Assembly (NCBI GenBank): GCA_905178155.1
Contig: CAJINV010000003.1
Span: 5,215,700-5,279,699 of the forward strand
DNA length: 64,000 bases
Direction: 5' to 3'
DNA from: Amoebophrya sp. A120
Taxonomy: Eukaryota > Protista > Dinoflagellata
Under the pieces are notes generated by a model that saw nothing but the letters and a program-made list of their open reading frames with translations, was not told where the DNA came from and searched no databases. Below are positions 8,815 through 51,426 of this stretch, piece by piece (the stretch's first letter is position 1; each line of letters opens with the position of its first letter). The translations under genes and the position numbers were made by a program.

Positions 8815-10521
<1,707 letters not shown>

Positions 10522-18400: not shown

Positions 18401-21400
18401 ATACGTACGCATGCGACGCTGGTTCATCTTCGCAAGACACCCCGACCGCAGATCTGCCTGCAAATCTCGGTGGTGCGCTGAACCGCAAGGAATTCAGCAT
18501 CTACCTCTTGCGCGCCGGCGAAAAGATTACGGACCCCCGCGGTTTTCTCGAGGGGATCATGAGCGGGGCGGCAGCGCTCTACAGCCGATCGGACGCCTCG
18601 GTGAACGTGCCGAAGCACAGCATGGAAATCTCGTTCTCGCGAAAAGCCCCCCAGGCCGAGCTGCTGTGCGTGTCTCCTTCGGCACCGGATGCGGAGGAGC
18701 AAGGAAAAATATACTATCCGCTCTGGCGACGTTGCTCGACAAACACAGAGGTCGTCAATGACCCAGTGCTCTTCGGAGACGGTAAGTGCGAGTTATTCTT
18801 GAACGTACACAATGTGTATGTGATAAGTTGTCCATGTGATACTAGTTCGCAGGCAGAATGAAAAGAAAGCCTGCGACATCTTTGCTTGACGTGCAGTTAG
18901 TATCGCAACGCACTTTCAGATGCTGTTTTCGACGTGCCGGATCACTGGCTGGCCTTGCGAGCAACGAACGGGCCGCTGCGGTTTCAGGTAGGATTTTCGG
19001 AAAGCGGGCTCTTTCACGGGGCGAACACAGCCGCGAACTTTTTCCTCGGCTTACGACACAACGCACTTGAGGTGTCAGATTTACTGCTGAAGGAGGAGGC
19101 GTTGCAGTGTCTGTCCCTCTTGTCGGCCTGCTTGCTCTCCACGCTTGTCTATTGAGAGGAAAAATCCCCCCTCCCCATATTGAAAAGGCATATTTCCGAA
19201 AATTTGTGTTGCTGATTTGAGGTCACAAATCGCGTTTGTTTTGCAAGAAGACAAGTGCAGAAGCTTCCGCACCATTATGGAAGCACTTTGTCATGCTGTT
19301 GGGCTTAAAGGGCCGCCGCTTGCCATGCTGAACAACTAGACGCATACGCCCCTCCCTAGCTTGGGGATCTGACCGCAGTGCTTTCCTGCAATACAAGTCG
19401 GATTTGTGTACGCAAATCCAGCATCTTTTTGGCTCAAGCCGTTTTGTCTTGTGGCCCATTTCCCACTTTAGAGACGGGGCCGCACCCCCGTAAGATCAAC
19501 TCGTCGGACTCATCGTGGAGATCAACCCCCGTGAGATCCAAGATCCGTAGAGGCACTCTGTAACAGGCACCAGGTGCGGCTGGTAGACTTTTAGACTCAC
19601 TCCGGGTAAGTTCCTAGTAATTCAAAGCAAAACAAAAACGAAGACACATCTGCCCTCCACCTGAAGCGCGCACGTGCGCAAAATGCTTCGGTGGCTCCAG
19701 CGGGCGTTCGCCCGGCTCTTCGTCTTGTCACCAGCGGCGGCGGACGGCGCATCTACTTTTGGTCGTGAACAGAGTACAATGACTCCGCAAACACAAGTTA
19801 GCGAAACGGACGAGGTGGCCGCCGGCACTCGCTAGTTGTGGACTCCATCCCCGAGCTGCCGATGGTGGATGAATTCTGCCGCCCATCTCCGAGTCACGAG
19901 GATGCCGCGTCCACTAGCGGATCGCCCTGCTGCGCTGGAGATCAGGGACTTTTATTTATTGTTTTCGTTCGTCTCACACTCACTCGCATGGATTCGATTC
20001 GTAGATCATACTAGCACCTGCACCATATCCAAGTTTATTTCTTTTGTATGTGTTTTTTTTTTCAGCCATCCTAAAACAAAGTCCGTCTGTGTTGTAGCAG
20101 CGGGTTGTCTTCTGGCCCTCCTGGTAACCGCATTCGATATAACTGACCTCAGGCTTGTCGTGGTGGCTGTGCGAGCAGCGGCTGTGCGCGGCTCTTTCCT
20201 CCTGCGCGGTGCGGCCTTCTCGATGCGGACGGGCCTTGAGGCACAAAGGTGGTGGTGGTGGTGGTGGTGGTGTTGACGGGATGGCTACGGAGATGGTATT
20301 CGGGTTGTCTTCATCGGATTTTCTTGCCGGGGGTACCGGGGCTGACCCATCTGTGTCAGTGCGCGGACCACGCCATCAGCTGTGATAGCGGCGCCCCATC
20401 TGCGGCGTTCGGTGTCCCCCGTGCGCCGGGTCCTGCGCGGTGCGACATTCTCGGAGTGGCCGAGCTTTGCGGCACCAAGTTACCATCTCCGAGTGCGACA
20501 CCAGGGTGGAGGTCGTCTCGTGGAGGGCGTCATCCGGCTCTGGCCACGAGTGGTGGTGTCCAGCGTGATGCGCTGTCTGTTCGACATCGCCCGCAGTTCT
20601 CCGTCACAGTGTTGTTGCTTTCGCAGTTGCTCTTCGAGATGCAAGCTGCGCTGGACGATGACGAGGTGGAGCAGCAGTTTGGGACGCGATTCCGTTTCAT
20701 TCGGCTCCGAGCTACATCGAGGTCTCAGTCTCACGCGCGGCTAGCAGGCGGGAAAGGACTCTCCGATATCGACACCGGCTGCAGACAGGCAGAGTGGGAA
20801 TTATCCACTGCCCATTCTTCATGCGGTCCTCCTGGGGTCTCTGGGGCTGTCCCTTCTGTGACAGTGCGCGGACCAACCCTTCTGCGTTGATAGCGGCACC
20901 CCTTTTGCGGTGTTCAGAGACCTCGGGCGCCGGTTCCTGCGCGATCCAGGACGCAGCGGAGGCAAGACAATGGGGTGGCCGGTAGGAGGGTGAGGAGTTG
21001 CCGCTCTACGCTTACAGCGGACGACGGTACCTGGTGGGCTCGTCACGTCATTCCCCGGATGCTGGATCAGGCAGCTCGGCCACGGTACTAGATCACATCA
21101 GTAAGTCGTCTTTGCATCTGCCTCTCTTTTCTGATTAATTTTCGTTTGTAGTTGCTCTGTGTGGTAGGTTTGCATGGTTACTTTTTGTTTGTACGTAGGT
21201 TTGCATGTGCATGCGTGTCGATGAATGATATCGAAACCTATGCCGCCATCCTGCGGGACGGCGGCGTTCTGGCTTTCCAACTCTATCCTCCCCAGGACCG
21301 TCAGCCCCGCCTCCATCTCGATTGGTCAGCGACTGCGTGTCCGAGCGATGGGTTGCTCTGGAGGCCAAAACCACTCCGCGTCCGATAGTTGCTCTCTCGT

Positions 21401-23015
21401 TTGGGAAAACGATGGCGATATGGCTTACGTCGGGGCTATGGTACGAATTTACGCTCTTGGCGGTCGGCTGTCTCCGGGTGTCCTTCCCAAGCTGTGGCTC
21501 GCGGCGTGGTGCGTTTGCCGGTGCCGACCCTTTTCTACGGAACGCTGTGGTGTCCTACTCTTCTGGCGGTCCTTCAAGAGCCCTTTCGCCTTCATCCCAG
21601 TGCTGTCGTTGACAGACCTTGGGCTGATAATCCCGTTGCAGGAGGTTCGGTCCTTGGCGCGTCTTCGCCACCGGCAGGAGTCAGGATGGGTAGATGGGTC
21701 TCCTCGTTGTTGCTTGAGCTTGCTCAGGTCTTCGCTGCTTTCGGTGGCTGGTGGCCGCTCTTGGGTTTCAGGTGTGGGTCGGAGTTCGTTTGCCTCTCGT
21801 CAGTTTGGACGGAGTGCTCTCGTTCAGCCACCCCCCGGCGGTCGACTGTCGGCGATCTGGCCCCCCCAGCTCATGATTGCAGTGTTGGCTGGTGATGACG
21901 AGGTTGCGGACAGTTGACTTGTCATCTGTCTGGTTCGCCCATTTTGCTGCCACGACTGTTTGGTCCCCGGTCCCCTGAGGCGGGGGGATACGGGTTACCT
22001 GGTCGGGATGTCGCGCGGAAGGTGTCTCTCACGTCCCTAGCTCTTCGTACTCGCCGCTGAGTACAGTCGAGCGCCTTGGTTGATCGCCACACTGTTTCAT
22101 AGTGCTGAAACGACCCGGCTTTCACTAGGGGGAGCATTCGTACACTTTGTGCCCTCCGGGACTATGCCTCTGCTTCCGTCTAAACTGAGGGGTCCACTTA
22201 TCCCTCTCGGTATTCGGTCGCAGGGAAGGGTTGCCGGGGTCTCCCTCGCATCGGTTCTCGATGTCGGGTGTGAGTTTGTGACTGCGGGGGCAGTGGTTGG
22301 CTTAGGTTTGCGGAGTACATCTGAAAAGAGGCTCCCATTCCTTCTTCCAGGTAGCGATCCTAGATCGCCGCCACGCGGAGCCACCCCCGTATTTCACCCC
22401 CAGGGGGTTGTGGACCTGGCAAAGCCGATGAGTTCGGGCTGCTGACTGTTCCACTTCTTCCGAGCGCGATCATGCTACGCCTCACGCAAATCCAGCATCA
22501 GAAACTTCGTTTTGATATGGGGAGGGGGGATTTTTCCTTTTGATATTGTCTTCCAGAACGCACCATCCCTCCGAGCGGGGAGATCAGTACAACCCTCGAC
22601 GCCACGAGCAGCTACACTGGGAATGGCACGCCTGCCCATCCTGCCGCTGTTACAAGCAGCGCTGTACTACGATGTAAAGATGTACCCAGTTTGCTTCGGC
22701 GCAGCAGCAGAGAAAGAGAACGATACCCACAGCCTGCCTCCCTTTCTCCTCGAAGTCATTCTCTGGAAACTGCGAGAACTCTCGCCGGAGCATTCCTACG
22801 AGGAGGACCACTTCCAGCTACTGTTGGAGACGGCCTACCCGAAAGTTTTGAAAAGTACTGGGCAAAACCGGGAGAGCCATTTGGACCGACTGAAGCGCAT
22901 GCAGCTGTCCTTTTTGCATTCGGTGCCGAAAACCAACAAGCACCTCTCGGCTTCCAAACTGCGGCGGGCCATCGACATCTACGAATCTTGCACTAGCTTG
23001 CGTTCTCGGACGTGA
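15450..23015 (+). CDS. Unknown protein interrupted by a 1.5-kb insertion-intron and a 3.4-kb nested introner
   Basis: Exons 15450-16523, 18058-18781, 19079-19149 and 22551-23015 join in one frame (..LIGQE|KQDRD.., ..FGD D LLLKEE.., ..STLV|FQNAP..). No recognised domain. Confidence 0.7.
16521..18014. mobile_element. 1.5-kb insertion flanked by a 43-bp direct repeat
   Basis: gctcgagcgacagctcgccgaactgcagcagttgatcgg(t/c)cag at 16478-16520 and 18015-18057 (1 mismatch). Interior is compositionally distinct (TTCGCC/TTCC-rich) with broken minus-strand ORFs. Confidence 0.8.
16533..16678 (+). repeat. Array of 9 GGAATCAAGTT-like units with 4-8 nt variable linkers
   Basis: Read directly; lies at the left end of the 1.5-kb insertion. 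Confidence 0.9.
19426..22483 (+). mobile_element. 3.06-kb nested insertion with 16-bp TSD, starting with a DinoSL 3' fragment (probable retroposed sequence)
   Basis: acgcaaatccagcatc at 19410-19425 and 22484-22499. TTTTGGCTCAAG at 19427-19438. No intact long ORF recognised. (GGT)n tract at about 20248-20272. Confidence 0.8.
19427..19438 (+). other. Spliced-leader relic (last 12 nt of DinoSL DCCGTAGCCATTTTGGCTCAAG)
   Basis: Exact 12-nt match at the insertion boundary, followed by CCGTTTTGTC (8/10 match to CCATTTTGGC), a possible second relic. Confidence 0.75.
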
Positions 23016-24214: not shown

Positions 24215-27200
24215 ATGGGCGGTGCGGTGGGGCAGCAGAAGAACGCGGAGGCGCGAGCGCTGAAGAGCAAGCAGGCGGAGCTTGGTTTTTTCCGAGACAC
24301 GCAGGAGCGGCGGGACATCGAGTGGCGGGACCGGCCGGATGCGGAGGTAGTGGTGGGCGAGGCAACGCACCCCGAGTGGGAGCAGACCGACAGTATCGTG
24401 TTCTCAAAACCGGTATCAAATGTAAAAATGTCTGGGTCTGGAAGAATGCATGTTTGTCCTGCTTGTCTGGCATGACTCTTAAATCTGTCATGCACATTGC
24501 CCAAAAGACGTTTTTTTCTGTCATGCGGAGACGCAGTTTGTCATGCAGAATAGGCAACACCTACAACCTCAGAAATTTGTCATGCTGAGCCAGCACTTGT
24601 GGCCTCCTCATGCTACGCCACTCAGCATCACAAGTTTCCAGACCCAGACACTTTTACATTTGATAACCGGTCGACTTCGCGAAGAAGCAGCAGCGGCAGT
24701 ATTACAATGAAAAATGCCCCCACCCCAAGCTTGGCAGCATTTGTATTGCAAACCTTTCCAACAGAAACATTCCCCGTCTTGCATATCTCAGCATCACAAA
24801 TTTGCCATGCTGAATAGCTCAGATTTGTGTTGCGAAGGAGCCCAACAGCAGCCGGATCTGTTATGGACAAGGCACCTTGCGCACCTAGATTCTGCATCAG
24901 AGAGGCTCGCAATCCTTTTATGCAAGACAAAAAGCTTTCATTTGGAAACTTTGCATGACAAACTTCTGCGAATTCCGGGTTGGGGGCATTTTTCATCGTA
25001 ATAGGCAGGGCCGGTTCTTTTCCAAGATGTATCGGTTCATCGGCACCTGGAAGGTGGACCAAAACTGCCTCTTCCTCCGCTGGGACGGAAAGGACGGCCA
25101 GATGGATGTGCTCCGCGCGGAGCGGATAGAAATCGAGTTCGCGAACTATGGCGTTGGCAAGCGTTTTTATTTACATAGATCGCCGTCAATTGTACGTGAA
25201 TCCTACTCCATTTGTGATGCAAGATTAGCAAACGCTAAAAGGGTCTTGCGCCTCCAGCACCACAACGAACTTCGGCACGGATTCTCACGTTGTTGAGCGC
25301 GTTGAAAGCTTAGCTTGCACAAAAACCTGGGCCACATGCAGATGAACGCGACACAGGTTCTGCATGACAGGATCCACGTAACAGCGATCCATGTAATATA
25401 ACGTTTGAGGGTGCCATACGAACCCACAGACCAAGATGATGGTCAAGGTTACGGAACCTAACGTCTTGCCGTGGTGGTTCACACCCGACTGCGTGTCGAA
25501 GCGCTTCGAGCGCTCGGACGAATCTCTGAAGAACTTCGAGTGCGGCGTCTGTTACTTCGAGCTGTGGAAAGCCCGCGGAGCAGCATATCCTATTGCACGA
25601 CTCCGCCTACTGCTTCGTGGACCCGCCTCGGCTGTCATGCAGAGTGAAACTAATACACATTGATTTGTGCAAGTGCGTGTAGTTGTGCTGTCACTTCAAT
25701 TTATTTCGGCCTGTCTGACAACGCTGCCTTGTCGCACTACATTGTTTGAAAGTCCTCTGTGCCTTTACAAAATAGAATCAAGCGTCCCTTAATGTCGTGC
25801 GTGAGCGTGTGACTTTCGTTTTCCGTGATTTACTTCAAATGTGGGTGAAAAGCACGGCGAGTTTTGCGCGCTCATACTGCAATGCGAAGGTACACACGCC
25901 GGGTATGCGAGCATTACATACACTACGAGTGTGCTGCGCATTTGCTGGAAGAGGCTCGGACAGAACACGGTAAGATTTTCCGCACTTTAGGCTGCGATGC
26001 GGTTCTACATGATTTTGATTTATTGTGCTCCTGCGCGTACTATTTTCTATAACGACGTTTTGTACGTCGTTTTGGTCTTCATACATTTTCAAGCTCAATT
26101 TTGTGCAGGTCGAAACGAAGCAGAGTGCCCGGTGTGCGGTGCAAGATTTAATGAGGTCAAAGAAATTTACGATACAGAACGAGCTTCGAGAAGTAAGTCT
26201 TTTTGCTTTATTCAATCAAACTCACTGCGGTGCAACGCTGCATGCCTGAATGCTGCGGAAAATGGTCGCGATTTGCGAGCAGCAAAGTTTCGATTCCGAT
26301 CTCGATCGTCATGTATGACCACGCAGTTAAATTCTGCAATGTGGTAGTTTTGAAAAAATGCCAAAAGTTCGAGTAAAGTCTTGCCTCTGGAAGCTTTTCT
26401 AAGCATATTTTGCCCGATATTTTGAAGGATCCGCGGGGGTGGTTTCAGATCGTTGATGCGGATTACGGTGGCGAGTTGAATCGAGTCGAGGTGCTGAACG
26501 GGTTGGGTACTACGATGCCCATCTCCCGCGAAAAACTTGAAGATGCAATAGAAAATCACTGGCACGAATGGGATCCCGATGGTACTACCACAACATGAAT
26601 AAATCTCATCTACGTCGCAGCTACCATCTGTTGCTAATCGGATCCGCTTGTTCATCTACTCCTGAGTCGTATGTGGAAGAATAAACTGAACAAACTTTAT
26701 TTGCAGAGTGGGTAGATAAGACCCGACGTCGTCCCGAGTTCGTTGCGCAGTCAGATATACGAGAATGAATGCGTCGGTTGAAAGGAAGAAACTCGTTCCA
26801 CAGGTTCTGGCACAATCACGGCGCGCGAATTTATGCTTGCGGGTAACGGGTTGAAGGACTACATCGTGCGGCACATCAAGGAGCTCGAGGGAAAGACGTC
26901 GGGCAAGGGCATGGCCATTCTGGACATCCCGGACCTGGATACCCACCCCCTTGAGTGGTTTGAGTACTGGGACGCGGACAATTCGGGCACGCTGGAACAG
27001 CACGAGATGGTGCGCGCCTTCGTTCGCACCTTCTGCGTGACCAACTGGGGCGAGCCCATCCTGCGTCGGGCCTTCGACATGCGCAAGCTGGCGGTCGTGG
27101 TGTGGAGCGAGCTTGGGTTCCACGCTCTGGATAGCATCGACTTCGAGACCTTTCTGGAACCAGACGGCCTCGCCGTATGAGAGTGGTGCACAACTAGCGA

Positions 27201-27370
27201 CCCCTCTCCCTCGTTTGCCGATTTTTCGTGCATGAAATATATACGGTTTAATACAATTACAAATGAGCGAGAGGCGGGGCGGGAGGTGTGCACCACTCTC
27301 ATACGCCGACACATTTATTCACAATCAAATCCATCTTAATGCTTTCGGCACGGGTTCGCAGGGGTTTTGA
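24215..27370 (+). CDS. RING finger + EF-hand protein with possible N-myristoylation (MGGAVG)
   Basis: RING CGVC..CEHYIHYEC..CPVC; EF-hand loops DADYGGELNRVE, DPDGSGTITARE, DADNSGTLEQHE. Frame restored by removing four introners; stop TGA at 27368-27370. Confidence 0.85.
24414..24665 (+). mobile_element. Introner family B (252 bp), TSD ACCGG
   Basis: 30-bp TIR tatcaaatgtaaaaatgtctgggtctggaa (1 mismatch). Removal gives ..FSKPVDFAKK.. Near-identical to the copy at 38810. Confidence 0.95.
24700..25003 (+). mobile_element. Introner (304 bp), TSD GGCAG
   Basis: 27-bp TIR tattacaatgaaaaatgcccccacccc (2 mismatches). Removal gives ..QQRQGRFFSK.. Confidence 0.95.
25147..25418 (+). mobile_element. Introner (272 bp), TSD CGAAC, degenerate TIR
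   Basis: Ends tatggc..caagcgtt / aacgtttga..gccata. Removal gives ..EFANPQTKMMVK.. Confidence 0.85.
26168..26407 (+). mobile_element. Decayed introner-like intron
   Basis: Left end tacgatacagaacgagcttcgagaagtaag vs reverse complement of right end tatgcttagaaaagcttccagaggcaag. TSD no longer recognisable. Separates ..KEI and LPDILKD.. Confidence 0.55.
27176..27303 (+). mobile_element. Mini-introner (128 bp), TSD CGCCG
   Basis: Perfect 17-bp TIR tatgagagtggtgcaca. Removal gives ..DGLADTFIHN.. Confidence 0.92.
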
Positions 27371-28777: not shown

Positions 28778-31700
28778 ATGTCCAACGATACCCCTGTATG
28801 GAACGAAAAGGCCGCTTGCAGCTTAACGTGGAGATCGTAGCGCGTGAGGCACAGGCACCGCACTTGCATTTCTAATGACCGCCTTTGTTTCATTTGCCTC
28901 TGTGGCTGCGAAGCTATTTTCTCAACAGAGTGAGACTCAGAAAGAGAAAAGATAAAGATCAAATTAATGCAGTGAAGATCTCTCTCTCTGAAACAAGAAC
29001 GATAGCGAAGCGAAAGCGGTGCAGCTACGATTTCCCGGCAGTGCGAATGCAAGCGGCCCTTTGTGCTCTTCCATAGCAGACAACCGGAGAAGATCCACAA
29101 GACCCGGACCAGCAATCTTCCCACAGCAATAGTACGAGTGTGCAGAGCCTGCGGGACCTCCAACACCAGAAATGGCTGCAGAAGAAAGAAGCGGCCGCGG
29201 CCGAAAAAGCCAAAGCAGCACCCCCGCCCGCGGCGGCGCACCAGCCGCTGACCGGGAATTCGAGTGCCTCCTCTTCCTCCTCCAGCAGCGCGCGACCAGC
29301 GTCAGCACAAGAGGCGGACCACTCGATGCGGAGTCCGATATGACGGATAAGTTTGTAATGCACCCACAGCCCCACAGAGTACAAACTTGATCCACTCCAA
29401 TAGTCCAAAGATCTAGATAGCCTAAGGACATGAAGACGTAGGAAGATCCTTAGTGATGTAAACAGCGTGAAGAACTAGAGGAAGACACTGAGACAAGATG
29501 ACGAACATATACACACCCAGGGCCCTTGAGCTAGGTTAGACATAGACATTCAGCATTGCAGTACTAGTAGTCATGGCGCTGTAGATGCGCATAGTTGTTC
29601 TACCATTGTAGTTTGTAGTGCGTACTCCGTGGGAAGTTTGCGTGCCTATGCAGATTTTCCCTTTACATCCGAAGCTCGGGGCGCGTTCCCCGGTGCGGCC
29701 GTTGCGGGAACTAAGCAATCCGAACGCTGAGTTTCTGAGAAAGGTCCACATCTTGCCCCTGGGGCAAAGCCAGAGCGCGCCGAACGACATGCTGCAGTTT
29801 TTGAAGCCCGCACTGAGCAACTTCCGGAAAACAAAACGCGTCCTCTACACCGGGATGGTGTTTGAGCACAATAGTCGCGACTTCATTGTCGTGAAAACAG
29901 ATCTATCAACTGTAAAAATGTCGGGGTCTGGAAGATTCCGGGATTTGTGATGCATAATTTGTATGATCCATGATGCATGTAATGCATGATCTAGCATCAC
30001 AGATTTTTAGAGGGCTTCCTGATGCCTATTCCGCATGAGAAATGCCCTCTCCGCGTAACACAAACTGGGCTCCTGTTGCGGGTCACGCAATACAGATTTT
30101 TTTGGAATCCAAAGACAGCATGACAAGTTGAAATCTTCCAGGGTTCCAAAGACAGCATGACAAGTTGAAATCTTCCAGACCCAGACATTTTGCAATTCAT
30201 AAGATCCAGAGGGCGGCAAGGACCCAGGGATACTTGGGCCCGACACCGAGTACTACTTTACAGGGCCCGCAGTGGCGCGGTTCAAGCGCATTCAGTTTTC
30301 CGCACTGACCAATGTTCTGAGGCGCGTAAGTGGATCCGACCAGCTCGAAGAAGATGAAGAGCTGAGCGGCTACAGCACGGAGAGGCTATTTCAAGAGATG
30401 ATCGCGCCTTACTTTCAATCGCATTCCGATAACGAGAAAACCGGCGGCGTCTTCAAACTCCTCAACGTCAACGAGAGTATAACGATCAACGGCGTCCAGT
30501 TTGTCGTGATGGCAACCGACCCGGAGGCTTGCTACGGTACTAAGTCCTATACGCTTAGTTGTAAAGTTTGCCGATCGCGGGCGCTTGAGGGGTGTGCGCT
30601 GACAGGAAGCGACATCTCTTTGCGGACGTGAAGGACCGCGAACGCGGGAATCGCGTTGGCAAGGACGAGTAGCACATCAATTGTTCAGGCAGTGTCACAC
30701 GACCTAGGAGTGAGTATACATCGTATTGACCACTGCATCATATCCGTGAACGAAATCCAAATCTGACACACAGGCATCGTCGATAAGGATACACTTATTT
30801 TTGTGGACAAGGATGAAACGCCGGAGTACCGTCGGATACACATCGTGCCTTTCCAAGACACGCTACCCCGGAGCTACCAGTATTGCCTTCTTCTCTTTTT
30901 GGTCACGTGCAGTTCGTTGTTGAAACTATTTGCCTGTAGTTTCGCCCAGTTCTTGATTTGTTTTTGCGGTGTCAAAACCCAGCAAAAAAAAGTAAGTAAG
31001 TAAAAAACTCGGCGCAGGTACGACGTCTTCAACGACTATTTGAAGCCGTACTGCAAAGCGCACGCGAACCAGCGGTATCGGGTAAATGACGTTTTCACCT
31101 ACAATGCGGTGCAATTTAAGGTGGTCTGCTGCGACCCGGAGGAGCTTGGTATCATGTCTTCGCGTAGATGATTCAGATTCTTCAGAATTTCTTGTTGTCG
31201 CTAATTTTGTTGAACAAGGCACTGCTATCGACATTGGTGAGATCGCAGAAAGACACTTCCGGCAAAAATGCTCTATTTTCCAACACTGCACAGGCGGCAC
31301 AAACACTACTCCGGGCAGCGGGGCGCGCATCGGGCGAAATACCACTGTGTATTGCGAAGGAGTGCTGCACCCACAGCTTCGTGATCTGCTTCCGCCAGAA
31401 CTCGTTACGCAACTCGCCTATCTACCGCCCGGTCTACAGATGCTGCTGCTCTCGACGGACGCAGTCGGTGGGAATCAGGAGCTCTTCGAGAGGCTGATGG
31501 AAGTCCAGGATATGTTGCAACAAAGACGAGGTATGATAGATGATGAAGAAGCGGAGATGCATTTTCTTTATTTCATGTCGTTGCTTTGGGGCGCGAAGTT
31601 TTCGATCCACCTTTCTAAGTGAGCATAGATACCAGTACAAGGTGGAAATTTAGATCATGTGTACCACAACAAAGCAGGATCCTTTATGGCATTTTTCAAT

Positions 31701-38400: not shown

Positions 38401-39321
38401 ATACGACAGGTCATCACCATGTTGGAGGATGTGATGAAAGATTCGGAAAAGGATGAGGCTGCAGCGGAACATATCCTGAGTAAAAACGTACCCACACCAG
38501 AGTTGTAATGCAAATCTGCATGCTGAAAATGTTTCTCATGCGGAGCTCCATGAGAAGCATTTTCTAGTCGTGTTTTGCAATTTGTCATGCTCCAATCAGC
38601 GTGGTATGCTAGATCTGTGATGCTGCTGAGCTAGCTCAAACAGCACTACACTACGAATCCAAATTTGTCATGCAAAACAGCCAAAACTTGTGGATTTGTC
38701 TAGCCGATTCCCCATCTTGACTCTGGTGTGGGTACGTTTTTACTCAGGATAGAACAGGAGGAGGCAGACTCGCAGTCCGCGTACGACGACTTTGTGCGAA
38801 AGACGACGATATCAAATGTAAAAATGTCTGGGTCTGGAAAAAAAGCACGTTTGTCATGCTTGTCTGGCATGACTTTTAAATCTGTCATGCACGTTACCCA
38901 AGAGCTCCGTTTTTCTGTGATGCAGGAGCGCAGTTTGTCATGCAGAATAGGCAAGACCTAGGAGCTCAGAAACTTGTCATGCTGAGCCAGCATTTGTAGC
39001 CTCATCATGAGACGCCGCCCAGCATCACAAGTTTCCAGACCCAGACACTTTTACAATCCATAGACGAACATGCTAAAGACGAACGAAAAGCAAACCGCAC
39101 AGAAGACCGAGCGGAAGGCGGGGGAAGAAGTTGCGCTGCAGGACACCACCGCCGCCATTAAGTCCCTCGGCCAGGCCATGTTCGACCTGACAGAGGAAAA
39201 CAAAGATGTCCACGCCAAGTGTGACTTCGTGCTGCAAAACTTCACGAAACGGCAAGCATCTATGACTTCGGAAATCGAAGCCGCGCAGACCGCCATCCAG
39301 TACCTCCAGGGGATGGCGTAA
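35456..39321 (+). CDS. Secreted long coiled-coil protein of dinoflagellate type
   Basis: Signal-peptide-like start, PVAKILKLLRDM..CWCK, SFLQ motifs, SQSGRIFGILSQM, C-terminal CDFVLQNFTKR..EIEA. Eight exons with several non-canonical junctions. Confidence 0.8.
38472..38751 (+). mobile_element. Introner (280 bp), TSD GAACA
   Basis: Perfect 32-bp TIR tatcctgagtaaaaacgtacccacaccagagt. Removal gives ..AAEQEEADSQ.. Confidence 0.96.
38810..39062 (+). mobile_element. Introner family B (253 bp), TSD GACGA
   Basis: Same TIR and body as the copy at 24414. Removal gives ..RKTTNMLKTN.. Confidence 0.95.
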
Positions 39322-40329: not shown

Positions 40330-42238
40330 ATGGTAATGGACGACGACGAGAGAGCCACAACAAAGCCGCGGGGGTCCCTGTCCTCCAACCCCATCGGCAT
40401 GACGAGCGGCATGGTGTCCGGCCAAGGAGGGGCGACGTCTGTAACTGGTGGTGCGACGTCGGTCATGGGCGGTGCTGTGCAGCAGTCCCAAATGGGCATG
40501 ATGTCTGGAGTGCAGCAGCAGCCGGTGATACCCATGAATCAGGCTACCCTGTACTCGAACTCTCCGGGCGGGGGACCGCCGGGAGCGCCCGCGATGATTT
40601 CCGGAATTGTTTCCGGACAGAACAATGCGCCGATGGTGTCCGGCATGGTCTCCGGCATCGTTCCCGCGCGCGGCCAGGGGCCCATGCTGAGTGCCGCGAT
40701 GGCTCAGCCCATGTTGAGTGGCATGGTGGCTCCGGTCAGCGGGCAGCCCATGATGAGCGCCCCCATCGTGTCCGGAATGACCGCTACGCGGCAAGCGGCG
40801 AAGCAACAAAACAAACCGAAAATGGGCGGTTACACGCTTGAGCAGATCGACCGGCAGTTCTTCGAGCAGGCCCAGGACATGTGCAACCAAACCAAGGACG
40901 AGGTGCTCGCCGTCTGGCGCATGAGCGAACCCAACGAGGACGCCAAGAAGCACGCGATTGGTTGGACGTGCGGCCTGTACTTGCTGATCGTCGTCTGCCT
41001 TCTGGCGGGCGCGCAGGCCGTGTTTTGTTGCGTGGACGAGAAGGTCAACGAGGTTTCGCGCACGGAAGTAACGGTCGGGGAGTCGGATATGGGAGTGTCA
41101 GGATCGAAATCGACAAAATCGAAATATTTGTGATGCATGAAATGCATGACGCGAAATACGTGTGTTGCAGAGCAGGCAAGTGAGGCCGATTGTAAGCCTG
41201 TTTGGGGTTATAGCTCGAGCTGCTAAAGCAGCATGAGAGAATCAGTCTTGTTTGCCTAAACAGCATTACAAACTGGATTTTTTTAGGCACCACCAGAATT
41301 TGTGATGCGCCACTTAGAAACTGGGTTCGGGCTGGAATCCATTTTATGCATGGCAAATTATTTCGATTTTGCCAATTTCGATTCTGACACTTCCATATCG
41401 GAGACCGACACAACCGTCGAAAAGGAGTACGAGTGGACCCTGCATTGCGGGCTCACTTGGGCGGCCCTCGGGTCGTTGTTCCTGTTGCTGGTCCTCGGGC
41501 TCTTCTGCCGGCTGGCCGACGCAGAGGACGAGGGCGACCACACCTTGTATGTGCTGGGTCGCCGCAACTTCTACCGCCAAATCAAACCCAAACGATCGGG
41601 ATGCTGCCGCTGTCACCCGCTGCCGAAGAACGGAATTCAGCCGCTGGAAACCATCGTGCAGGTTAGTGGTCTATTTGTTCTTTGTGCGTCGGATATGTTG
41701 ATGTCGTGGCATTCGCACTTGCTATTCCTTTGTGTGGAATAGGAATTTGTTTTTGATCACGGCGCAATCCCCTCCTACGTTAGCGATATGATGATGATGA
41801 TGTTAGTGGAAGTGCGACTTCTGAAAGTACAAAAACGTATGAATTCGAATCCCCAATTTTTTCTCATGTGCGTTCGTACAGGTTACGACAGATACGGTGC
41901 CGACAACCGACGCGGCGGTTTTCGAGTTTACGATGAATGCCGTGGTCATCGATCTGCCCCTGGGAGCAGCGTTGAACGACAACAAGGACATGCACGGGGC
42001 GAAGAAGGCGAAAGGCCCCGTCCACTACAATTTACACCCCCGGGTTTATTGTTTCATGGACGACCCACCCCGCGCCGCCGCGGCCATCATGGAGGCCGTG
42101 CAGCTCCGGCGACAGGAGCTCGGCATTTCCGGCTTCCAACCCACGCCAATCAGCACGACGTATGTTGGGGGTCAGATTTCCGGGCCGCCTCCGCAGCAAT
42201 CCGCAATGCCCGCAATCAGCGGGTATGGTGCAATCTAA
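40330..42238 (+). CDS. Two-TM membrane protein with Met/Gly/Pro-rich N-terminus, unknown function
   Basis: Exons 40330-41087, 41403-41661, 41882-42238. Hydrophobic segments GLYLLIVVCLLAGAQAVF and AALGSLFLLLVLGLF. Confidence 0.75.
41088..41397 (+). mobile_element. Introner (310 bp), TSD TCGGA
   Basis: 39-bp TIR tatgggagtgtcaggatcgaaatcgacaaaatcgaaata (4 mismatches). Removal gives ..VGESETDTTV.. Confidence 0.95.
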
Positions 42239-43237: not shown

Positions 43238-46200
43238 ATGAACGGGAGGCATCCGCATCAGCACAATACGGGTCTCAGCTGGCTAACGCCTTCGGAGGAA
43301 ACGTTCCTGACTCCTTCTCCGGATGATGGGTCTTTGCGGGTCCCGGTAGCCGGCGGTAGTAAAGCCGCCTCGTCTTCCTCCACGGCGGCGCAGCACAAAA
43401 AGCAGTGCAACGGGGGCAGAGCCAACCCTTGGAGCGCCGAAACCAAGCAGGTGTTCGCGTTCTATCCGCCTACAAGCGGCGCCGAGGCTGCGACCCATGG
43501 TAGGGGCAGCAGAGACAGGCTCAGTGCGGCGAGCCGCGAGATCGAGAATTCCCGGAGAAAGCACAAGAGCGGCGCGCACACCGGCGAGAATAAGCGAAAT
43601 AATCCGGGGGACGACGGTATCCAATGTGCAGATATTTTGTGTCCGGTTTTGGAAGGATGCTGCAAGGTTTGATGGCACGCTTGTCTGGTATGACTGAAGG
43701 GCTTGTGATGCGTGTCAAAGAGGACTCGATCACCGTTTTGCTTGTCACGCAAAAACGTAGTTTGTCATGCAATGCTCGTCAACATGCGGAAATAAACGTG
43801 CTCGTGCATTACAGGGCAGATATTCACATTTCTCATGCTCTTCTGCTGTGCAACATTACATATCTAGGGTATTCAGTATTCACAACCCAGCATTACAACA
43901 AGTTTCCAGGCACATTTGCAATGCATAGACCGCACGTTTGATAGCAACGGCTTCGTGGACGAAATCCGGGATCGGAGTCTGATGGGGCAGTCGCTGTTGA
44001 TGCGGAAGCGCGCCGAGGCGCGCAACGCGCAGCCCGAAAAGCCGGTCCCCACCTCGATCTACGGGGAGGACGACCCGCTGCTGCAGTCCGAGGCCGGCCT
44101 GGGGCAGTTCGACCAGCAGCGCTACCTCCCGCTGGACCCCAAGCAGTTTGAACCGGACGTCCTGGCGGCATTGCGGAAAGCGCAGCGGACGGAGATCCAG
44201 AAGCTTGGCAAGTATTTTGCCATCGAGGACTATCGTACGAAAAAAGTGTTACAGTTAATACACATCGTGTTGCAGACCAAGCAAGACAGACAAGCTCTGT
44301 CATGCCAAATGTGCATAGGAGCCTGGCTTCGTGCGTGTTACTTATTTTCCCGTTGGATTTCTGCATTGCAAGTTCATCTAGCGAAATTCGATGTGTTGCT
44401 GCATTGACAACAAATGCGTAACTGCAACAGCACTTTTTTCGTGTGATAAGGACGCCGACGAAGTAGCGGCGGCGCTCGCCGCTGCGGTCAGCGCCGACGA
44501 AAAGCGGAATCTGTTGCTGAACGCACCGGAGCTGATTCCCCAGGACGACGTCGACTACGATGTGGAGGACGCCCGGTTGTATCCGCCAGAAGATGACATC
44601 AAATTTGGGAAGAAAACGCGTCCGCGCACCGCCCCGGGGCCTGGTCGTGGAGCGGGTCAGCCGCAGCACTTCCGCGACAACAAAAAGAAAGCAGCGGGGT
44701 CCACCTCCTCCGTGGGGGCGGGGCCGAGCGCGGCTCTCTCGGAAAAAAGCAAAGAAGAAACGATGGACGCGGCAGCACGGTACGCTGCCAAAGCGGAGGC
44801 CTATCCCGAGCACCATAACTACAGCTTCGAGGACACAACGGATCTACTGAACTACAAATTTGACCCCGAAGCCGGGGCCGACCCGCCAGACTTGGTGCGC
44901 AGAAACATCCTCAGCGAAGCGGTATTTGTTTGGTCCTCCCGGTATTATGATCTACAACTCAAAAATCGCGACACGAACATAGTATTTATGCTGATGTTCT
45001 TGAGTCGGAGTCGCGGCTGGTTGCAGTAGTATTAATTGCAGACGCAGAAGCTGAGGCTCTGCATAACATATCAATCAGCGGACCTGTACTATGTAAAGTA
45101 TGCAAAAATGTTGTTCTCTTGTGCTTGTTTTTGTACAGTTTTGTTCTTCGAGAAGTCTCTCTACCATTCTGGAAAAACATGAGATTTTGATCATCCGAAC
45201 AGGTGTACGCGCACAGCGATCGTGCAGAGCTCTGGTTGGAGCACGCGGAGAAGGAGGGTATCGACCTGTTCGCCCGTCCGGAGGGCGAGTATGTGCGCCC
45301 CTTTGAGCAGAAGCCGTTGGATCGCGACATGAACGCCACGACCTCGGGCAAGATGGTGCGCATGCCTGTGATGCGGCCCGCGGTGATGCGGCGGCTCCAG
45401 AAGCGGTACTGCAGCCACCACTTCGCGGCTGCGCGCGCCGTGCTGGCGCAGAAGCGGGAGGAGGTGCGGGGGCTCAAGGGTGTGAAGAAAGCCCTGACCT
45501 CGCAGGGCCGGGTAGAGATGGACCGCGCGCGGGAGGAGCTGCGGGGCGCGGAGGACGACGACGCGGAATTGAACGACCTCGCGAACGCGGGGGCCTGGTA
45601 CGTGCTCCAGCGGCGCGCGGAGCTGGACGAAGTGGACGAGGCGGAAGCGAGCAAAGCAGGCACCAACATCGGCGCGCGAGGAGAGCTACACGGCCCGAGC
45701 CTCGGTACGAATCCGAATCTGTGGAGCGACGAGCGGTTCTTCGGCGGCGCAGAGGAGGTTGAGGAGAAACGCTGGAAGGAGGCGGAGCCCGCGCCTCCTG
45801 CACCGTCGACGGCAAACAAAATAACCGGCGGCAGGGGCCGGGCGTACCGTGCCGGGTCGCCCGGAACGAGAGTAGACGGAGGACGCGGTGGAGTGGACTC
45901 AGAGGAGGAGGCCACCTTCGAGCAGACCGACCGGTCCAGTACTACATTAGAGGGGCAGACAACGATAGAGATCCCCTCCGCCGGGGTGGTCGTTGCGCCA
46001 CAACCGCGGCCGCGCCCACAAAGTGCGGTTGTCTCGCAGCAGCGTGGTCCCGCGCCGGGCGAAAGTAGACCGGCGAGTGCGGCTGCTCGCCCGAGAAGCT
46101 TCTCCGCACGCGCGCGCTCACCCAAGCATCAACCAGGCCGGGAGGGCGGAGGTGCTGCAAGGCCGCGAAAGCGCCCGAGCCGACACCCCCGCCGGCCCGG

Positions 46201-47639
46201 GTCTGCCACGGCGTACCGCCCGGGCTCGGCGAAAGATCCGCGAACGCCGCCGTCCGCCTACGAGGTGGTGCTGAACGTAGATGATCTACTTCAGCAGGTA
46301 GACGAAGAGGAGCTCGGCGCGGAGGAGTTTTTCGACGAGGATGTTGAGAGCGCGGGGCCGCCCTCGAGAAACATCACTTCTGCGGGGCAGCACCGCGCCG
46401 GTTCCACCACGGCCAGCGAGGAGCTTCGACGAAGACACAGCGAACTGCAGCGGCGTGGCGACGAGTACGACGGCGGCCCCACCGTGGCGGCAAACGGTGC
46501 GCTGGAGCAGCTGCGCGAGCCCAAGGACGTGCAGGCCCTCCGCGGTGCGGTGTCGTCGACCCAGGTCCAGGAGCGCGAGCAGGTGCAGGAGCAGAAGTAC
46601 GGGTACTCGTCCCAGCGCCGCCGGATGAAGTTGTCGGAGCGGATGAAGATCCCCATGGCGGTATCAAAAGGAAAAATCCCCGCTCCCCATATCGAAAAGG
46701 TATGTTTCCGAAAATTTGTGTTGCTGATTTGAGGCCACAAATCACATTTGTACTGCAAGAAGACAAGGGCAGAAGCTTCCGCCCCACTATGGAAGCGATT
46801 TGCCATGCTGTCGGCCCTAAAAGTGACCCTTTTGCCATGCTGAACAACTAGGCCCATACGCCCCTACCTAGCCTGGGGATCTGGCCGCAGTGAGTGCCCG
46901 CCTGCAATACAAACCTGATTTGTGTACACAGATCCAGCAGCAGAAGTTCCGTTTTGATAATATGGGGAGGGGGGATTTTTCCTTTCGATAGGCGGAGTTC
47001 CCGCAGCGGCCGTTGACCAGCGTGCCACGGCTGGACCAGATGCAGAAGCCGCCGACCCCACGGATCGTGGGTCGGCGGGTCCACAACGGGGTCACGATGG
47101 ATCCCGCCACCGGGCGCGAGTGGCACGGGGAACAGCCGAAGTTCGAACCGCCGCCGCCGCTGACCGGCACGCTCACGGACGGTTTTCTGAACCCGCGCAA
47201 GGCGGCGCTCCCGGAGCTGAAGGAGAAGGGCACGGGCGGCGTGGGCAAGAATTTTCAGCTGATTACGCCGTTGCAGCGGCGCGAGTGGTACGACTACTGC
47301 GCGTTCGCCGAAACGAATCTGGACCGCAAAGCGGCGGACCTCCGGGCACAGATCCGGTACCACCGGGATGCCATTGCCATTCATCTGCGGCGCAAGGAGG
47401 AGCAGAAGCGGCGCGCAGTCTGGGAGCAGCAGGCGCAGAAGCAGACTCTGCGAAACCGTGTGAACCAGGAGGGAGCGCACCTGCGGTCGCAAATCTCGTC
47501 CAAGCGGCAGCAGTCCGCAGATGAGAAGGAACGGGAGGCGCGCCAGCGCGGGGAGAAATTTGGATCTGAGAAGGAACGTTACGAAAAGATGAACGCTTTC
47601 TTCTCGCGCAACCAGAGGCACCTGCAGCTAAATCAGTAG
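43238..47639 (+). CDS. Large low-complexity/coiled-coil protein, unknown function
   Basis: ORF pieces join in frame after removing three introners and a GT-AG intron (about 44922-45202). Confidence 0.75.
43618..43927 (+). mobile_element. Diverged family B introner (310 bp), imperfect TSD GACGG/GACCG
   Basis: tatccaatgtgcag..cacatttgcaatgcata; body resembles the copy at 24414. Removal gives ..GDD(R/G)TFDSN.. Confidence 0.8.
44231..44448 (+). mobile_element. Introner (218 bp), TSD AGGAC
   Basis: tatcgtacgaaaaaagtgttacagtta / taactgcaacagcacttttttcgtgtgata. Removal gives ..FAIEDADEVA.. Confidence 0.9.
46662..46990 (+). mobile_element. Introner family A (329 bp), TSD GGCGG
   Basis: 31-bp TIR (2 mismatches). 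Removal gives ..KIPMAEFPQRP.. Confidence 0.95.
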
Positions 47640-48859
47640 CGCGGTGTTTCAGTTTCAGTTTTCCCAGGGGGAAAAGTATTCGATGTAAACTTCAGATTTT
47701 GTGTTGTCGAGGTAGCAGGCAGTAAATCTAATTTTTCACCTAGAGTCCATACATCTGCCTGCTTCAGCCCTGACAAGAGATACAGATGTGGGAGGAGATG
47801 AGCCTACAACTTGTTTGTCTCTGTTTCTGTATCACCCTTTCTCGCGCTGGATACGACTAAGAGAATTAAGATTTCGCGGAAGCAAGTGCAAGCGATGTTG
47901 TAGCCGAAAAGCAAATAAAGACGAAACAACTTTCCATGAACACACTGAATTTATGCGGGATCTTCAAGAAGTGCAGGAGGGACTTCATTGCGAAGATAGA
48001 TCAATCAATGATACAAAGCGATTACAGGCATCGAAGAAGTGGCGTTGGCCCTCAGCAGAGCAGCCAATGCTTCTTCGTCAAGAAGCGAAGTCGGAGTGTG
48101 GTGTGTGAGACACGGCTCATTTTTTGTTCCCTCCAGCTACCTTGCAATTTGCAATGGATGGCGAAATTACTATAGAGAAGCTGGGATTTGTATTTAGTTT
48201 TTGCGTTGAGCAGTCGATTCATTCTGAACGACAGAGATCACGAAATTATATAGCTTTTCTTCCTTTGCCCACTCAATTCACAGTCTGATGTCTTTCTTCT
48301 TCAGCTCTTTTTATTCGATATCCCTGTGCTTCTGTTAACTCAGTGTCAGTGCTGTACAAGAGGCGGCAACCAAAAATAACATCCGCATTCCACGTTGTGT
48401 ACATGGGAACAAAAGGAACATCAAAAGGAAATCCTGATCGCGTGAATGTAAGCAGTGGATATAAACAAATAGCGAATTATTAGAGCAGGTTTGTTTCCTT
48501 GCGTAGGACGCACGATGATTATATATGCGATTCCACTGCCAACGACAAGGGAAATGTTTTGATGAGCAGGCAGAAACATCATAGACCCCTTTGAGAGCGA
48601 ACGCGAGCACTGGTGTCCTTGTGTAGCATCATAGATGATACGCTTTGCATTGCGAAGTGCAAGGGTGTGCGTCATTGTTTCACGATTTGTCAGAACACCA
48701 AGACATGGCGATTTTCCGATTAGAACTTCCAGGGTGAAAAAGAAAGACAGGAGGCACAAGAAAGCAGATAAAACCAGCAAGAACGTCAAAATTCTGATCG
48801 AAGCGGAACGATAAGTAAAAGCTGTGTGAACAAATACAAGGAAGATGTTTTCACCATCA

Positions 48860-51426
48860 ATGAATCATCGCGAGTTAAGCCCGGAGGAGGCACTGGACAA
48901 GGGGGTCTTGGAGGCCAGCAAGGCGCACCAATCTCCGTGCGCGGAGAAGGGGAAGATCTTCTCGCATGCGGATGCCTTGGGTTTGACGGCTTCGGAGCGG
49001 CGCTTGGTGTATCGACAGCAGGAGCTGTATGGAACCAAGTGTCAGGTGGGATGAAAAAATTGTCAGAAAAATGGAAAAAACATAAAATATTATAGGTTTG
49101 TTACAAACCCATAATGCCCAAGCAGCTGGAATATCGATTCTATTACAAATTGTAACAGAATCGATATTTTTCCAATTTCAGCTGCTCGGGCATTTCTAAG
49201 CGGCGCCTGACAAATGTTGCAGACACTTAGAGCCAACCTTTCCTACTTTTCTGGGCAGCTTGAACTTTGTTTTGTCATCCCGGCCTGACTGCAGTAATTT
49301 TCTGTATGCAAGGCTTTTTCCAATCGGCATCGGCTCCGCTTGTCTTCTTTGCAAGAATAAAGACACTTGTTCAAAGCTCATGTTAGAGTGCCTAGCACAA
49401 TTTCACTTTTTTCTTGGACGATAACTACTTCCCACCTGGCACAACTGCCAGCCGAATAAGCCGCCGCTGGAACAACAAGAGCCGCCTTCAACGACCGACG
49501 CCGAGCAGCTGAATACCAAACAGCCGGATGTGGGCGGAAACAAGAGCAGTGGCGCTGCCGGGGCCGCGACGGGGAGTGCCACCGCCGCGCCGCGCCTGAA
49601 CGCGGCGTACTTGGCGACGTTGAAGCCGCCGTGCGTGTCCATGCCGCAGCCCGTGTCGCAGGTGTACCTGCAGCAGCTTGTCGACCACAAGGAACGGGAG
49701 CACCAGCTGGCGCTGGCGCGGGACCGCGAAATGGTAGAGCAGGCGCTCGCGGGGCGGAGCTGGGAGGAGGTGGCTTTGGAAAACCCGGTAGACCCCCTGC
49801 TCGGCAGCAAAATTGCCCAGCAGTTATGCATTGCAAATATGTCATCTGGGTCTGGAAGATTCCGAGATTTGTCATGCAGTTTTTCCAAGCTCCGCCAAGT
49901 CTGGAATGCAGCGAGTAGCATCACAGGTTCTGCAGCCCCTTGCGGATTCCTATTCTGCATGAGAAATGCCCTTTCAGCAGGGCCAGAAGTGGGGACCTTT
50001 TGCAAGTCATACAACACAGATTTTTGTATGATCCGCAACACGCATCACAAGTTCGCATTCTTCCAGGCGCAGTCATATTTGCATTTGATAGCAGTACTGG
50101 CTGGACGAGTACGGGTCGCTCCATCCCCCCGTGACCCGCACCCTCGAGCGGAAACGGGACCAGAAGCTCCAGGAGAAGCTCGCCTGGCAAGAAGCGCAGG
50201 CGGGCTGGCGAGAAGCGCAGGCGGGCCTGGCCGCCGAGAGTGGCGCCAAGATGAACGCGTTCCTCGGGGGGCTTAGTACAACTAATCCGAATGCTAACAT
50301 CATTAACCAGCAGGTGCCACCAGTGCCCGAGAAGGAGAACGTCGTCAATTCGTCCTTCGCGGTCGGTCATGGCCCGATGATCCACAACCCATTGGCAGGA
50401 CGAAGCCGTCCGGCGCCGTACGCGGGCGGAAAAAGCGACGCGATCGTTCCGGGGGCGCGGCCGCGCAACGCTAAGGAGCTCCCGCCCACGCGGAGGCATG
50501 ACAAATTGCCGGTCTTGCGAGAAGAGGAACGACCAGGAGAGCAGCCAGTACTCTCGGAGGACGAGGAAGAGGAATTGCTGTGGCCACCGGACCCGAAGAG
50601 ACAGTCGAAGTATCAAAATCACATTCGGAAGTACAACGCACCGATGATGATAGATTCACCGCCTGCTTCCCCTCGTGCTGGGGGAGAGTTTGGAGGGAAT
50701 AATATTTCCTCAGAACAGCGCGATTTGCTGAGCGATGATCCACCTGCTCGCGGGAAAGACCGTACTAAACCGCTCCTTCCCGCCGTCGAGAAAAATCCGA
50801 AACCCAAGAGCGGCGCCGCTGCGACCGCGGCGGCGAAGAAAAAGGCTGCTGCCGAGTCGGCGAAGATGAAACCGGCTGCTCCCGAGGCGGAGAAAAAGGC
50901 GGCTCCTGCTGCGACAGCAAAAAAGTCTACTACTGGTGCTGCTGCGAAAAAGAGGGCCGGTGCTGAGACGGCGAAAAAAGCGGTTACTGCTGCGACGACA
51001 AGAAAGACCGCGACGGCGAAGAAGGAGCCTGGTAGTACCGCAGCGGTGAAAAAAGCCACTCTGAATGCCGGGACTTCCTCGATGAAGAAGGCGGCTACGA
51101 TCGCCGAGACAAAAAAAAAGCCCACTGGTGCGGGGGCCGCGAAGAAGACTGCTGCTGTGGCTCAGAATGCCAAGAAGAACGGCGCGGTAGAGGGGGCTGC
51201 GAAGCACAAGGAGAGCGCGGAAGCTAAGACTGTGACGAACACTAAAGCACCGGCGGGACCCGCGCCCAAAGCCAAGGCAAAAGTCGCGAGAGCCGCGCCG
51301 GCGTCGACCAGCAAATCCATGAAAAAGGACCCTCAACAGTCTGCGCCGAGGAGCAAGCCCGTGCAGAAGCAAGGACAGAAGCCGAAAGCTGCTCCGAAGG
51401 CAGTGATGAAAAAGGAGAACAAGTGA
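48860..51426 (+). CDS. Protein with histone-H1-like Lys/Ala-rich C-terminal tail
   Basis: Exon about 49425-49824 joins 50096-51426 in frame; the last ~200 aa are AAKK-rich. First exon (48860-about 49045) and its junction are uncertain. Confidence 0.65.
49113..49194. repeat. Intronic foldback hairpin
   Basis: aatgcccaagcagctg..cagctgctcgggcatt encloses aatatcgattctattacaa-a-ttgtaacagaatcgatatt. Confidence 0.85.
49825..50090 (+). mobile_element. Introner, family B-related (266 bp), TSD GCAGT
   Basis: tatgcattgcaaatatg..catatttgcatttgata; body resembles the copy at 29904. Removal gives ..IAQQYWLDEYG.. Confidence 0.92.

Follow-up and report, generated by a model that had tools for sequence, protein, structure and literature searches.

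How can genes whose exons carry insertions with terminal inverted repeats (TIRs) and short direct repeats (DRs) still encode uninterrupted proteins, and what placed the insertions there? Both questions are raised by the 64,000-nucleotide stretch of Amoebophrya sp. A120 DNA analyzed here (herein referred to as the window). An earlier sequence-only reading had recognized that the phenomenon is known in Amoebophrya, and indeed the elements match published A120-type introners. Those introners have inverted repeats that start with TAT, followed by ~7 nt and then a run of A, DRs of 3–5 nt (with a 5-bp example in the legend of Fig. S19), noncanonical splicing, a length of ~240 nt and very many copies (Farhat 2021; PMC7789003). 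The window elements share the TAT inverted repeat and A run, a DR within the 3–5-nt range, noncanonical removal and genome-wide repetition, and a window exon is 100% identical to an Amoebophrya sp. A120 protein. Because these elements are published, the finding as originally written is not new. The published account, however, gives DRs of 3–5 nt, calls the splice sites "variable" or does not place them with respect to the hairpin, deems splice positions within the repeats unresolvable and leaves the families unlinked. Here, by contrast, the repeat is strictly 5 bp, decayed copies in the window point to one register, an internal motif is shared, and a second assembly contains the same families. 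We consider it probable that the elements are published A120-type introners that reside in the DNA and whose removal from RNA takes exactly 5 nt along with the element, likely through splicing measured from the predicted TIR hairpin and likely after mobilization by an integrase-type DDE transposase.

Intact Elements Share Their Ends and a 5-bp Repeat

A blind scan of the window for TAT..ATA elements with an exact 5-bp DR returned 11 elements of 128–329 bp, and with TIR pairing added the window again gave 11, compared with none in 197 of 200 shuffles and one in the other three. A 12th element (43618–43927) has the imperfect DR GACGG/GACCG and a 13th (19150–22545, DR TTGTC) is 3,396 bp long, such that scan and inspection together confirm TAT…ATA ends and 5-bp repeats in all 13 listed elements (all on the + strand). 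The main family comprises 24414–24665 (DR ACCGG) and 38810–39062 (GACGA), as well as 29904–30201 (AGATC) and 49825–50090 (GCAGT), which lie opposite in orientation to 24414; genic insertions hence occur in both orientations. The others are 24700–25003 (GGCAG), 25147–25418 (CGAAC), 27176–27303 (CGCCG), 38472–38751 (GAACA, with a 32-bp perfect TIR), 41088–41397 (TCGGA), 44231–44448 (AGGAC) and 46662–46990 (GGCGG), the last sharing its TIR type with the 19150 element. The duplicated 5 bp show no base preference, and the assignment to seven host genes is consistent with open reading frames (ORFs) and RNA contigs. The elements are short, TIR-bounded, flanked by a target-site duplication (TSD), noncoding and present in high copy, as are MITEs (nonautonomous TIR transposons). 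The proposed minimum of eight TIR types holds roughly as a count (we find 7–8) but not as discrete types, since these grade into one another along a continuum with the pattern TAT-[C/G]-N6-AAAA.

The proposed size range of 128–329 bp is correct for 12 elements and fails for 19150–22545, which is long because of a nested insert of ~3.06 kb (19426–22483, no strand assigned). This insert lacks a TIR, has an identical 16-bp repeat on both sides and yielded no match in a six-frame Pfam search; it is likely a decayed non-LTR retroelement, and its host is a copy of the 46662 family. The 3,396-bp element was rejected as an autonomous progenitor on the grounds of these interior flanks, its broken frames and the lack of a Pfam match.

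Of 56 main-family pairs in the second assembly, 48 are flanked by a perfectly matched 5-bp DR. A wider scan, restricted to TAT..ATA ends or strong TIRs close to main-family matches, found an exact 5-bp DR in 276 of 401 elements; none of the 401 had a 6-bp repeat, and lengths of 7 bp and 8 bp were each matched once. An end-agnostic scan recovered TAT..ATA with 5 bp in 280 of 515 matches, most of the others looking like shifted registers within the same TIRs. One element lies within a GT-AG intron (L067:8308–8547) and has a near-perfect 5-bp DR. The TIR types have in common both TAT-S-N6-AAAA and an internal motif, TGT[CG]A[TC]GC, which occurs 33 times in 4,970 bp of window elements versus 8 times in the remaining 59,030 bp; in the second assembly it is found 1.9–3.4 times per element across nine TIR types. 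Summed DNA contig depth in element bins reaches 391,150 compared with ~47 for unique DNA, a figure that is not a true copy number. The proposal of a single end and TSD rule across TIR types is thus upheld by the scans of both data sets.

Elements Are Present in DNA and Removed from RNA

RNA contigs support removal of the element plus 5 nt for 8 of the 13 elements, by three direct joints and five exact length sums. The direct joints lie at 19150 (19144 to 22546, skipping 3401, the element plus 5), 27176 (skipping 133) and 29904 (skipping 303); the length sums are exact for 24414, 24700 and 25147 jointly, with a GT-AG intron at 25970–26108 read from the sequence, and for 38472 with 38810, where the annotated protein P0001 agrees. 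Among the joints listed there is none for 41088, 43618, 44231, 46662 or 49825, which are supported by ORF continuity and, at 43618, also by orthologues; for the 43934 exon, a HMMER search found homologues where a word-index search gave none. An RNA contig piece stops at 46656, just 5' of the DR of the 46662 element. All RNA contigs come from one sample and study, and their label is tentative ("RNA?"), yet GT-AG introns are also skipped in them. Two raw RNA runs gave no evidence on splicing, one covering repeat ends only (with unlike flanks) and the other element interiors only.

DNA contigs, by comparison, run unbranched from exon through DR into TIR at single-copy depth (~44), and one 2,926-nt DNA record spans the 43618 element. 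Three insertion points compared with six orthologues show no indel, and in RPB1 of the second assembly removal of 5 nt was the best of five values tried at six of seven elements, the seventh lying outside the aligned region. The claim that each element leaves with one TSD copy and restores the protein is therefore borne out by RNA contigs, orthologues and ORF continuity. One further copy, absent from the earlier list, is retained: RNA contigs run from 33229 to 34000 without a break across 33494–33772 (no strand assigned), a decayed member of the 46662 family in reverse orientation whose left end is TAG and whose DR has degenerated.

Decayed Copies Point to One Splice Register

Beyond the earlier list we identified six decayed but spliced copies, all on the + strand. 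RNA joints skip 296 nt (291+5) at 25586–25876 (flanks CAGCA/CTGCA), 245 nt (240+5) at 26168–26407 (TAC..ATA, flanks AAATT/TTTTG), 284 nt (279+5) at 28797–29075 (flanks CCCTG/GCAGA, with a TIR remnant), now a GT..AG intron at 28796–29079, and 334 nt (329+5) at 29339–29667 (TAT..ACA, perfect DR TCCGA). The copy at 35653–35965 (TAC..ATA, flanks ACAGT/GCCCA) corresponds to an intron at 35652–35969, which residue E66 of annotated P0001 requires and which leaves no gap against orthologues, and that at 36643–36915 (flanks CTCTG/AAATA) is supported by an RNA loose end at 36919 and by P0001. TIR scores of the spliced 25586 and 29339 copies are no better than those of shuffles. These six spliced copies begin with TAC, end in ACA or are flanked by degenerate DRs, so the proposed invariance of TAT/ATA ends applies to intact copies only.

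The mismatched repeats of decayed copies indicate the position of the cut, which likely falls after DR base 4. Six junctions are informative: 28797 and 35653 allow base 4 only, 26168 and 36643 allow base 3 or 4, 43618 allows base 4 or 5, a cut that orthologue conservation favors there as predicted beforehand, and 25586 allows base 2 or later. The sole register possible at 28797 and at 35653 is −1/+4, the latter derived from the annotated protein P0001 rather than from an RNA joint; the register accordingly has as its basis six junctions in one window, with 28797 the only RNA joint of the two unambiguous cases. From these copies we infer that the intron starts 1 nt 5' of TAT and ends 4 nt 3' of ATA, in one register for which GT-AG is unneeded. 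Across 23 junctions examined, −1/+4 fits 11 (10 without any GT..AG option and one that is GT..AG), such that the GT..AG ends of a canonical U2 intron are absent as a register in 10 of the 11; the remaining 12 are all readable as GT..AG.

A G occurs at DR base 5 in 37 of 130 oriented perfect DRs against a background of ~30%, indicating no preference. AG at DR bases 3–4 occurs in 16 of 130 versus 7–8 at other offsets, which hints faintly at selection favoring a canonical acceptor, although the value is near the base-composition expectation. Obligatory matching of DR base 4 on both sides was rejected, as mismatches occur at all five positions (23/18/13/14/16), and polarizing 32 decayed DRs in the second assembly revealed no register. 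For the largest family, the splice sites tallied in the literature (5' NT in 6,681/9,716; 3' AN in 6,598/9,716) count against a single register, since −1/+4 alone fails to predict the 3' AN tally; on our own reading, that tally may reflect aligner ambiguity within perfect repeats. We found no statement of a fixed splice register in the text of the published literature.

The Putative Mobilizing Enzyme

As the sequence-only reading had stated, no transposase was found in the window, in a Pfam search of 24 of its ORFs. Long candidates from 632 kb of second-assembly loci (150 of 367 locus ORFs read by eye) likewise yielded no transposase, and the main-family TIR pattern had no matches in viral contigs. 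Among the candidates rejected, L064:3562–9758 is a pair of copies in inverted orientation that enclose host exons, L067:6792–7763 and L006:9473–10727 have no Pfam match above the curated cut-off, L015:505–1608 appears by eye to be filled with repeats, L052:5538–7086 spans separate elements, and the long pairs of L043, L058 and L059 do the same, judging from coordinates. Farhat 2021 (PMC7789003) also found no transposase in A120 and argues against transposase-driven spread.

Known systems resemble the elements in part. Of 58 A120 families, 56 have no superfamily (Gozashti 2025; PMC12130899); published TSD calls across the 58 span 2–11 bp or are given as NA, and one family, fam65, is Mutator-like, its ends being GG/CC and its TSD 8–9 bp. 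Dataset S2 of the same study lists fam38 as "5-bp TSD, TA/TA Termini" with integrase-like homology, and its main text describes this family as without Ginger termini and TSDs; fam38 differs in its ~810 bp and ORF remnants, and the rule is given for it alone. IS3EU/GingerRoot elements (PMC10045372, PMC6839031) share TA..TA termini, TIRs, a lack of target preference and a proposed integrase-related DDE enzyme, but their TSD is usually 6 bp (0/401 here); GingerRoot has TIRs of 100–150 bp and lengths of 3.9–12.9 kb, and these elements are not described there as introns. Ginger1 and Ginger2 have TG..CA termini in contrast to TAT..ATA here. The TNT..AYA signature of IS481EU (PMC10045372) covers TAT..ATA; its TSDs are ~4, 15 or 25 bp, in parabasalids, versus 5 bp here. 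The earlier view that the termini fit no namable superfamily therefore stands as regards the TSD and gives way as regards the TA..TA ends, which resemble IS3EU/GingerRoot. On the shared ends and internal motif, one transposase lineage for all families is plausible, and we lean slightly toward a mobilizing enzyme of the IS3EU/GingerRoot-like integrase family that would cut with a 5-bp stagger and be encoded elsewhere.

A Proposed Hairpin Ruler and Competing Explanations

We propose that the cut would be placed by its distance from the predicted TIR hairpin and not by normal splice signals. In this register, +2/+3 of the intron would be the element's terminal T and A, as in GURAG, and since its 1+4 nt equal the 5-bp duplication, every insertion would be scarless in any frame. 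The hairpin may replace U1 within a modified U2 spliceosome, a step that we rate slightly above even; U1 has been reported undetected in A120, where U2, U4, U5 and U6 are present. The retained 33494 copy still has TA at its left end, an observation that counts against this reading, as do the shuffle-level TIR scores of the spliced 25586 and 29339 copies. Removal by a structure-specific endonuclease and a ligase at fixed hairpin distances, releasing a linear or circular intron, has been proposed for euglenid nonconventional introns; here it would account for the lack of a conserved GT or AG, for function in either orientation, for element ends that pair in predicted folds and for the undetected U1. 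Those euglenid introns (reviewed in PMC11282704) have TIR-paired ends, TSD-like repeats, no GT-AG and wide length ranges, and leave as full-length circles; they differ in their pyrimidine|purine junction and CAG/CTG pairing at +4..6, and have no TAT..ATA or 5-bp rule. Against such removal, U and A fall at +2/+3 in the −1/+4 register like those of a spliceosomal donor, the other four snRNAs are present, and decayed 28797 is a GT..AG intron in that very register (a single case that could be chance, at ~2% per element); we regard this alternative as unlikely.

The uniform duplication could instead be a filter, with several unrelated transposases and survival in exons of only those insertions that fit −1/+4. 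We infer that a 4- or 6-bp TSD would cause a frameshift under a 1+4 rule, there is little internal alignment between TIR types, and the published list does contain the Mutator-like family; yet no 6-bp class exists at any location among the 401 elements (from the scan that required TAT..ATA ends or strong TIRs), the element inside the GT-AG intron (L067:8308–8547) keeps a near-perfect 5-bp DR, and all these TIR types have both TAT-S-N6-AAAA and the internal motif in common, making a filter quite improbable. Excision at the DNA level, as for ciliate IESs, with RNA transcribed from cleaned somatic copies, is hardly credible: precise loss with one repeat does resemble pointer-guided excision, and 335 further joints lie outside those listed, but the unbranched, single-copy DNA contigs speak against it, with the proviso that rare variants may drop from contigs. 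Returning to measurement from the hairpin, a fuller version, which we advance tentatively, is that signal-free "ruler" splicing may have co-adapted with an integrase-type transposon clade that has no name yet and that cuts with a 5-bp stagger, and that aged copies may become GT-AG introns in the same register.

Implications for Amoebophrya Genes

Farhat 2021 (PMC7789003) describes as open the question of how, without detectable U1, tens of thousands of noncanonical introns are spliced in A120, and decayed repeats let the register be read directly. If true, a fixed −1/+4 rule would allow A120 gene models to be corrected, would reveal how a transposon can become a canonical intron and would confine the hunt for the missing transposase to integrase-like enzymes with TA..TA ends. 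Splicing by such a ruler, if true, would mean that insertions in any orientation and frame, up to kilobases in length, are erased from the mRNA.

Introners in the Window

The Amoebophrya introner system is real and was previously described, as published accounts make clear. In the sections of Farhat 2021 consulted (PMC7789003), A120 inverted repeats begin TAT, direct repeats measure 3–5 nt (with one 5-bp example), splice positions are given as "variable" or unknown, U1 is undetected and no transposase was found in A120. Gozashti 2025 (PMC12130899), compared through the complete set of 58 A120 entries in its Dataset S2, lists fam38 as Ginger ("5-bp TSD, TA/TA Termini", Copia/Gypsy homology), fam65 as Mutator and every other family as unknown; its automatically called TSDs span 2–11 bp or are NA. 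The unifying rule of the sequence-only reading (TAT..ATA ends, 5-bp repeat) stands and is sharper than in print. The exon at 36917–37603 matches a protein named Amoebophrya sp. A120 at 100% identity and an A25-named protein at 79%.

A repeat-bounded scan of the window recovered 11 TAT..ATA elements of 128–329 bp with exact 5-bp direct repeats; shuffle controls requiring pairing of terminal inverted repeats (TIRs) gave no match in 197 of 200 shuffles and one in 3. No strict introner was found at 1–19149 or 50091–64000, so the elements cluster mid-window. For the 13 elements originally listed the rule holds, but the size range does not: the TTGTC element (19150–22545) spans 3,396 bp, its ends matching the 329-bp copy at 46662 (84.5%) around a 3.06-kb insert with identical 16-bp flanking repeats. 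This insert, which had no Pfam match in a six-frame search, is probably a decayed non-LTR element. The nested sequence (19426–22483, 16-bp duplication) also contains an internal ~100-nt repeat (20338/20843), and substitutions seen close to its right end in a few RNA contigs point to further copies.

Several neighboring features were also observed. The gene carrying the element at 19150 has a ~1.5-kb insert (16521–18014, within 16478–18057) that lies between copies of a 43-nt direct repeat (97.7%) at which RNA contigs break, begins with tandem decamer repeats and holds a low-complexity minus-strand ORF lacking a match in a Pfam search. The 29904 element bears a 34-nt exact tandem duplication (30108–30178) in its right subterminal region. 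A tubulin gene at 9005–10521, presumably alpha-type, seems to have a single intron, and the scans detected no introner in it. A 1,650-aa ORF (56252–61204) encodes a very large GTPase domain resembling URGCP (Pfam PF25683, E 2e-32).

The elements are removed from RNA, not from DNA. RNA-type contigs of one sample (X3–X6), which also skip GT-AG introns, skip 3401 nt at 19150, 133 at 27176 and 303 at 29904, each the element plus 5, and RNA contigs give exact length sums for 24414+24700+25147 (1,018 nt) and 38472+38810 (112 nt). These joints and sums support the claim that element plus one TSD is removed; for the remaining five of the 13 elements, no joint is among the RNA joints listed. DNA contigs (X1) pass from exon into TIR without branching at depth ~44, and summed DNA contig depth in element bins reaches 391,150, a value that is indicative only. 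In the annotated protein P0001, three insertion points show no indel relative to six orthologues.

The 5-bp Rule in a Second Assembly

Scanning metagenome contigs with a TIR pattern yielded 154 stretches at 150 loci (632 kb; the 80 stretches listed are all JACKZZ01 contigs), a sample biased toward neighborhoods of the main family. These loci carry the same families at about 65–80% identity, and the rule extends to them. An exact 5-bp repeat flanks 48/56 main-family pairs and, across all types, 276 of 401 TAT..ATA elements; one mismatch is seen in 44 of the others, two in 20 and more in 61. None of the 401 matches at 6 bp, and a scan blind to end sequence returned TAT..ATA with 5 bp in 280/515 matches. 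The repeat lacks base preference, the three length phases are equal, both orientations occur within genes (20 vs 13), and in RPB1 removal of 5 nt is best at 6/7 elements.

That RPB1 gene (L067:1–12030), from an Amoebophrya-like organism, has seven introners in its exons, of which one measures 972 bp and carries a nested insert. An additional introner lies within a GT-AG intron, and there appears to be a local duplication near 1780/2720. Insertion phase appears skewed in the oriented set (80/45/37 of 162, L001–L150), possibly reflecting target preference or a codon-scoring artefact. Another locus (L015:505–1608) holds a TAT..ATA element of 1,104 bp whose 5-bp repeat is perfect and which is full of palindromic GC-rich repeats.

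Candidate Mobilizing Enzyme

The TIR types have TAT-[C/G]-N6-AAAA in common, and the internal motif TGT[CG]A[TC]GC occurs 33 times in 4,970 bp of elements versus 8 in 59,030 bp elsewhere. Since this motif was picked visually among the copies in the window, a fairer test comes from the second assembly; there the motif was found in nine TIR types, against a masked background of 1.2 per kb. Such sharing favors common ancestry or a shared binding factor, without thereby naming the enzyme. In the portions of PMC10045372 and PMC6839031 consulted, IS3EU/GingerRoot elements have similar TA..TA ends but 6-bp TSDs, a length that rules out membership for the introners; IS481EU has TNT..AYA ends with TSDs of 4/15/25 bp rather than 5, and 5 bp is the TSD length of most LTR elements (related literature, likewise consulted in part: PMC9860276, PMC11282704, PMC12005148). 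Our best guess, held with slightly more belief than doubt, is an integrase-type DDE enzyme.

A Proposed Fixed Splice Register

Where left and right direct repeats (DRs) differ, mRNA reveals the cut position. Four more RNA joints equal a decayed, previously overlooked element plus 5 nt (25586, 26168, 28797 and 29339), and 36643 and 35653 join the decayed spliced copies (RNA contigs and P0001). The cut falls only after DR base 4 at 28797 and 35653, after base 3 or 4 at 26168 and 36643, and after base 2 or later at 25586; for the GACGG/GACCG element (43618–43927), D-G-T-F-D was predicted beforehand and the G is present in orthologues, giving base 4 or 5. The sole solution shared by these six informative junctions is base 4, and the intron would comprise the left repeat's last base, the element and the right repeat's first four bases (−1/+4).

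The check covered 23 junctions, 17 taken from listed RNA joints, piece boundaries or loose ends and 6 from arithmetic or P0001. Eleven obey this register, and the other 12 are readable as GT..AG introns that lack TIRs. The annotated protein follows the non-canonical cut at 35653, where the alternative GT..AG reading would lose a residue kept in orthologues; at 28797 the −1/+4 register gives a GT..AG intron with TIR remnants, a single case that could be due to chance. Against the register stand published tallies with a symmetric AN excess at 3′ ends, two spliced decayed copies with weak TIRs and a decayed copy (33494) that stays in RNA. No paper in our literature search states the register; Farhat Figs 3, S21 and S23 may bear on the point. 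What this analysis adds is the proposed fixed −1/+4 register, drawn from six informative junctions, together with what would follow from it.
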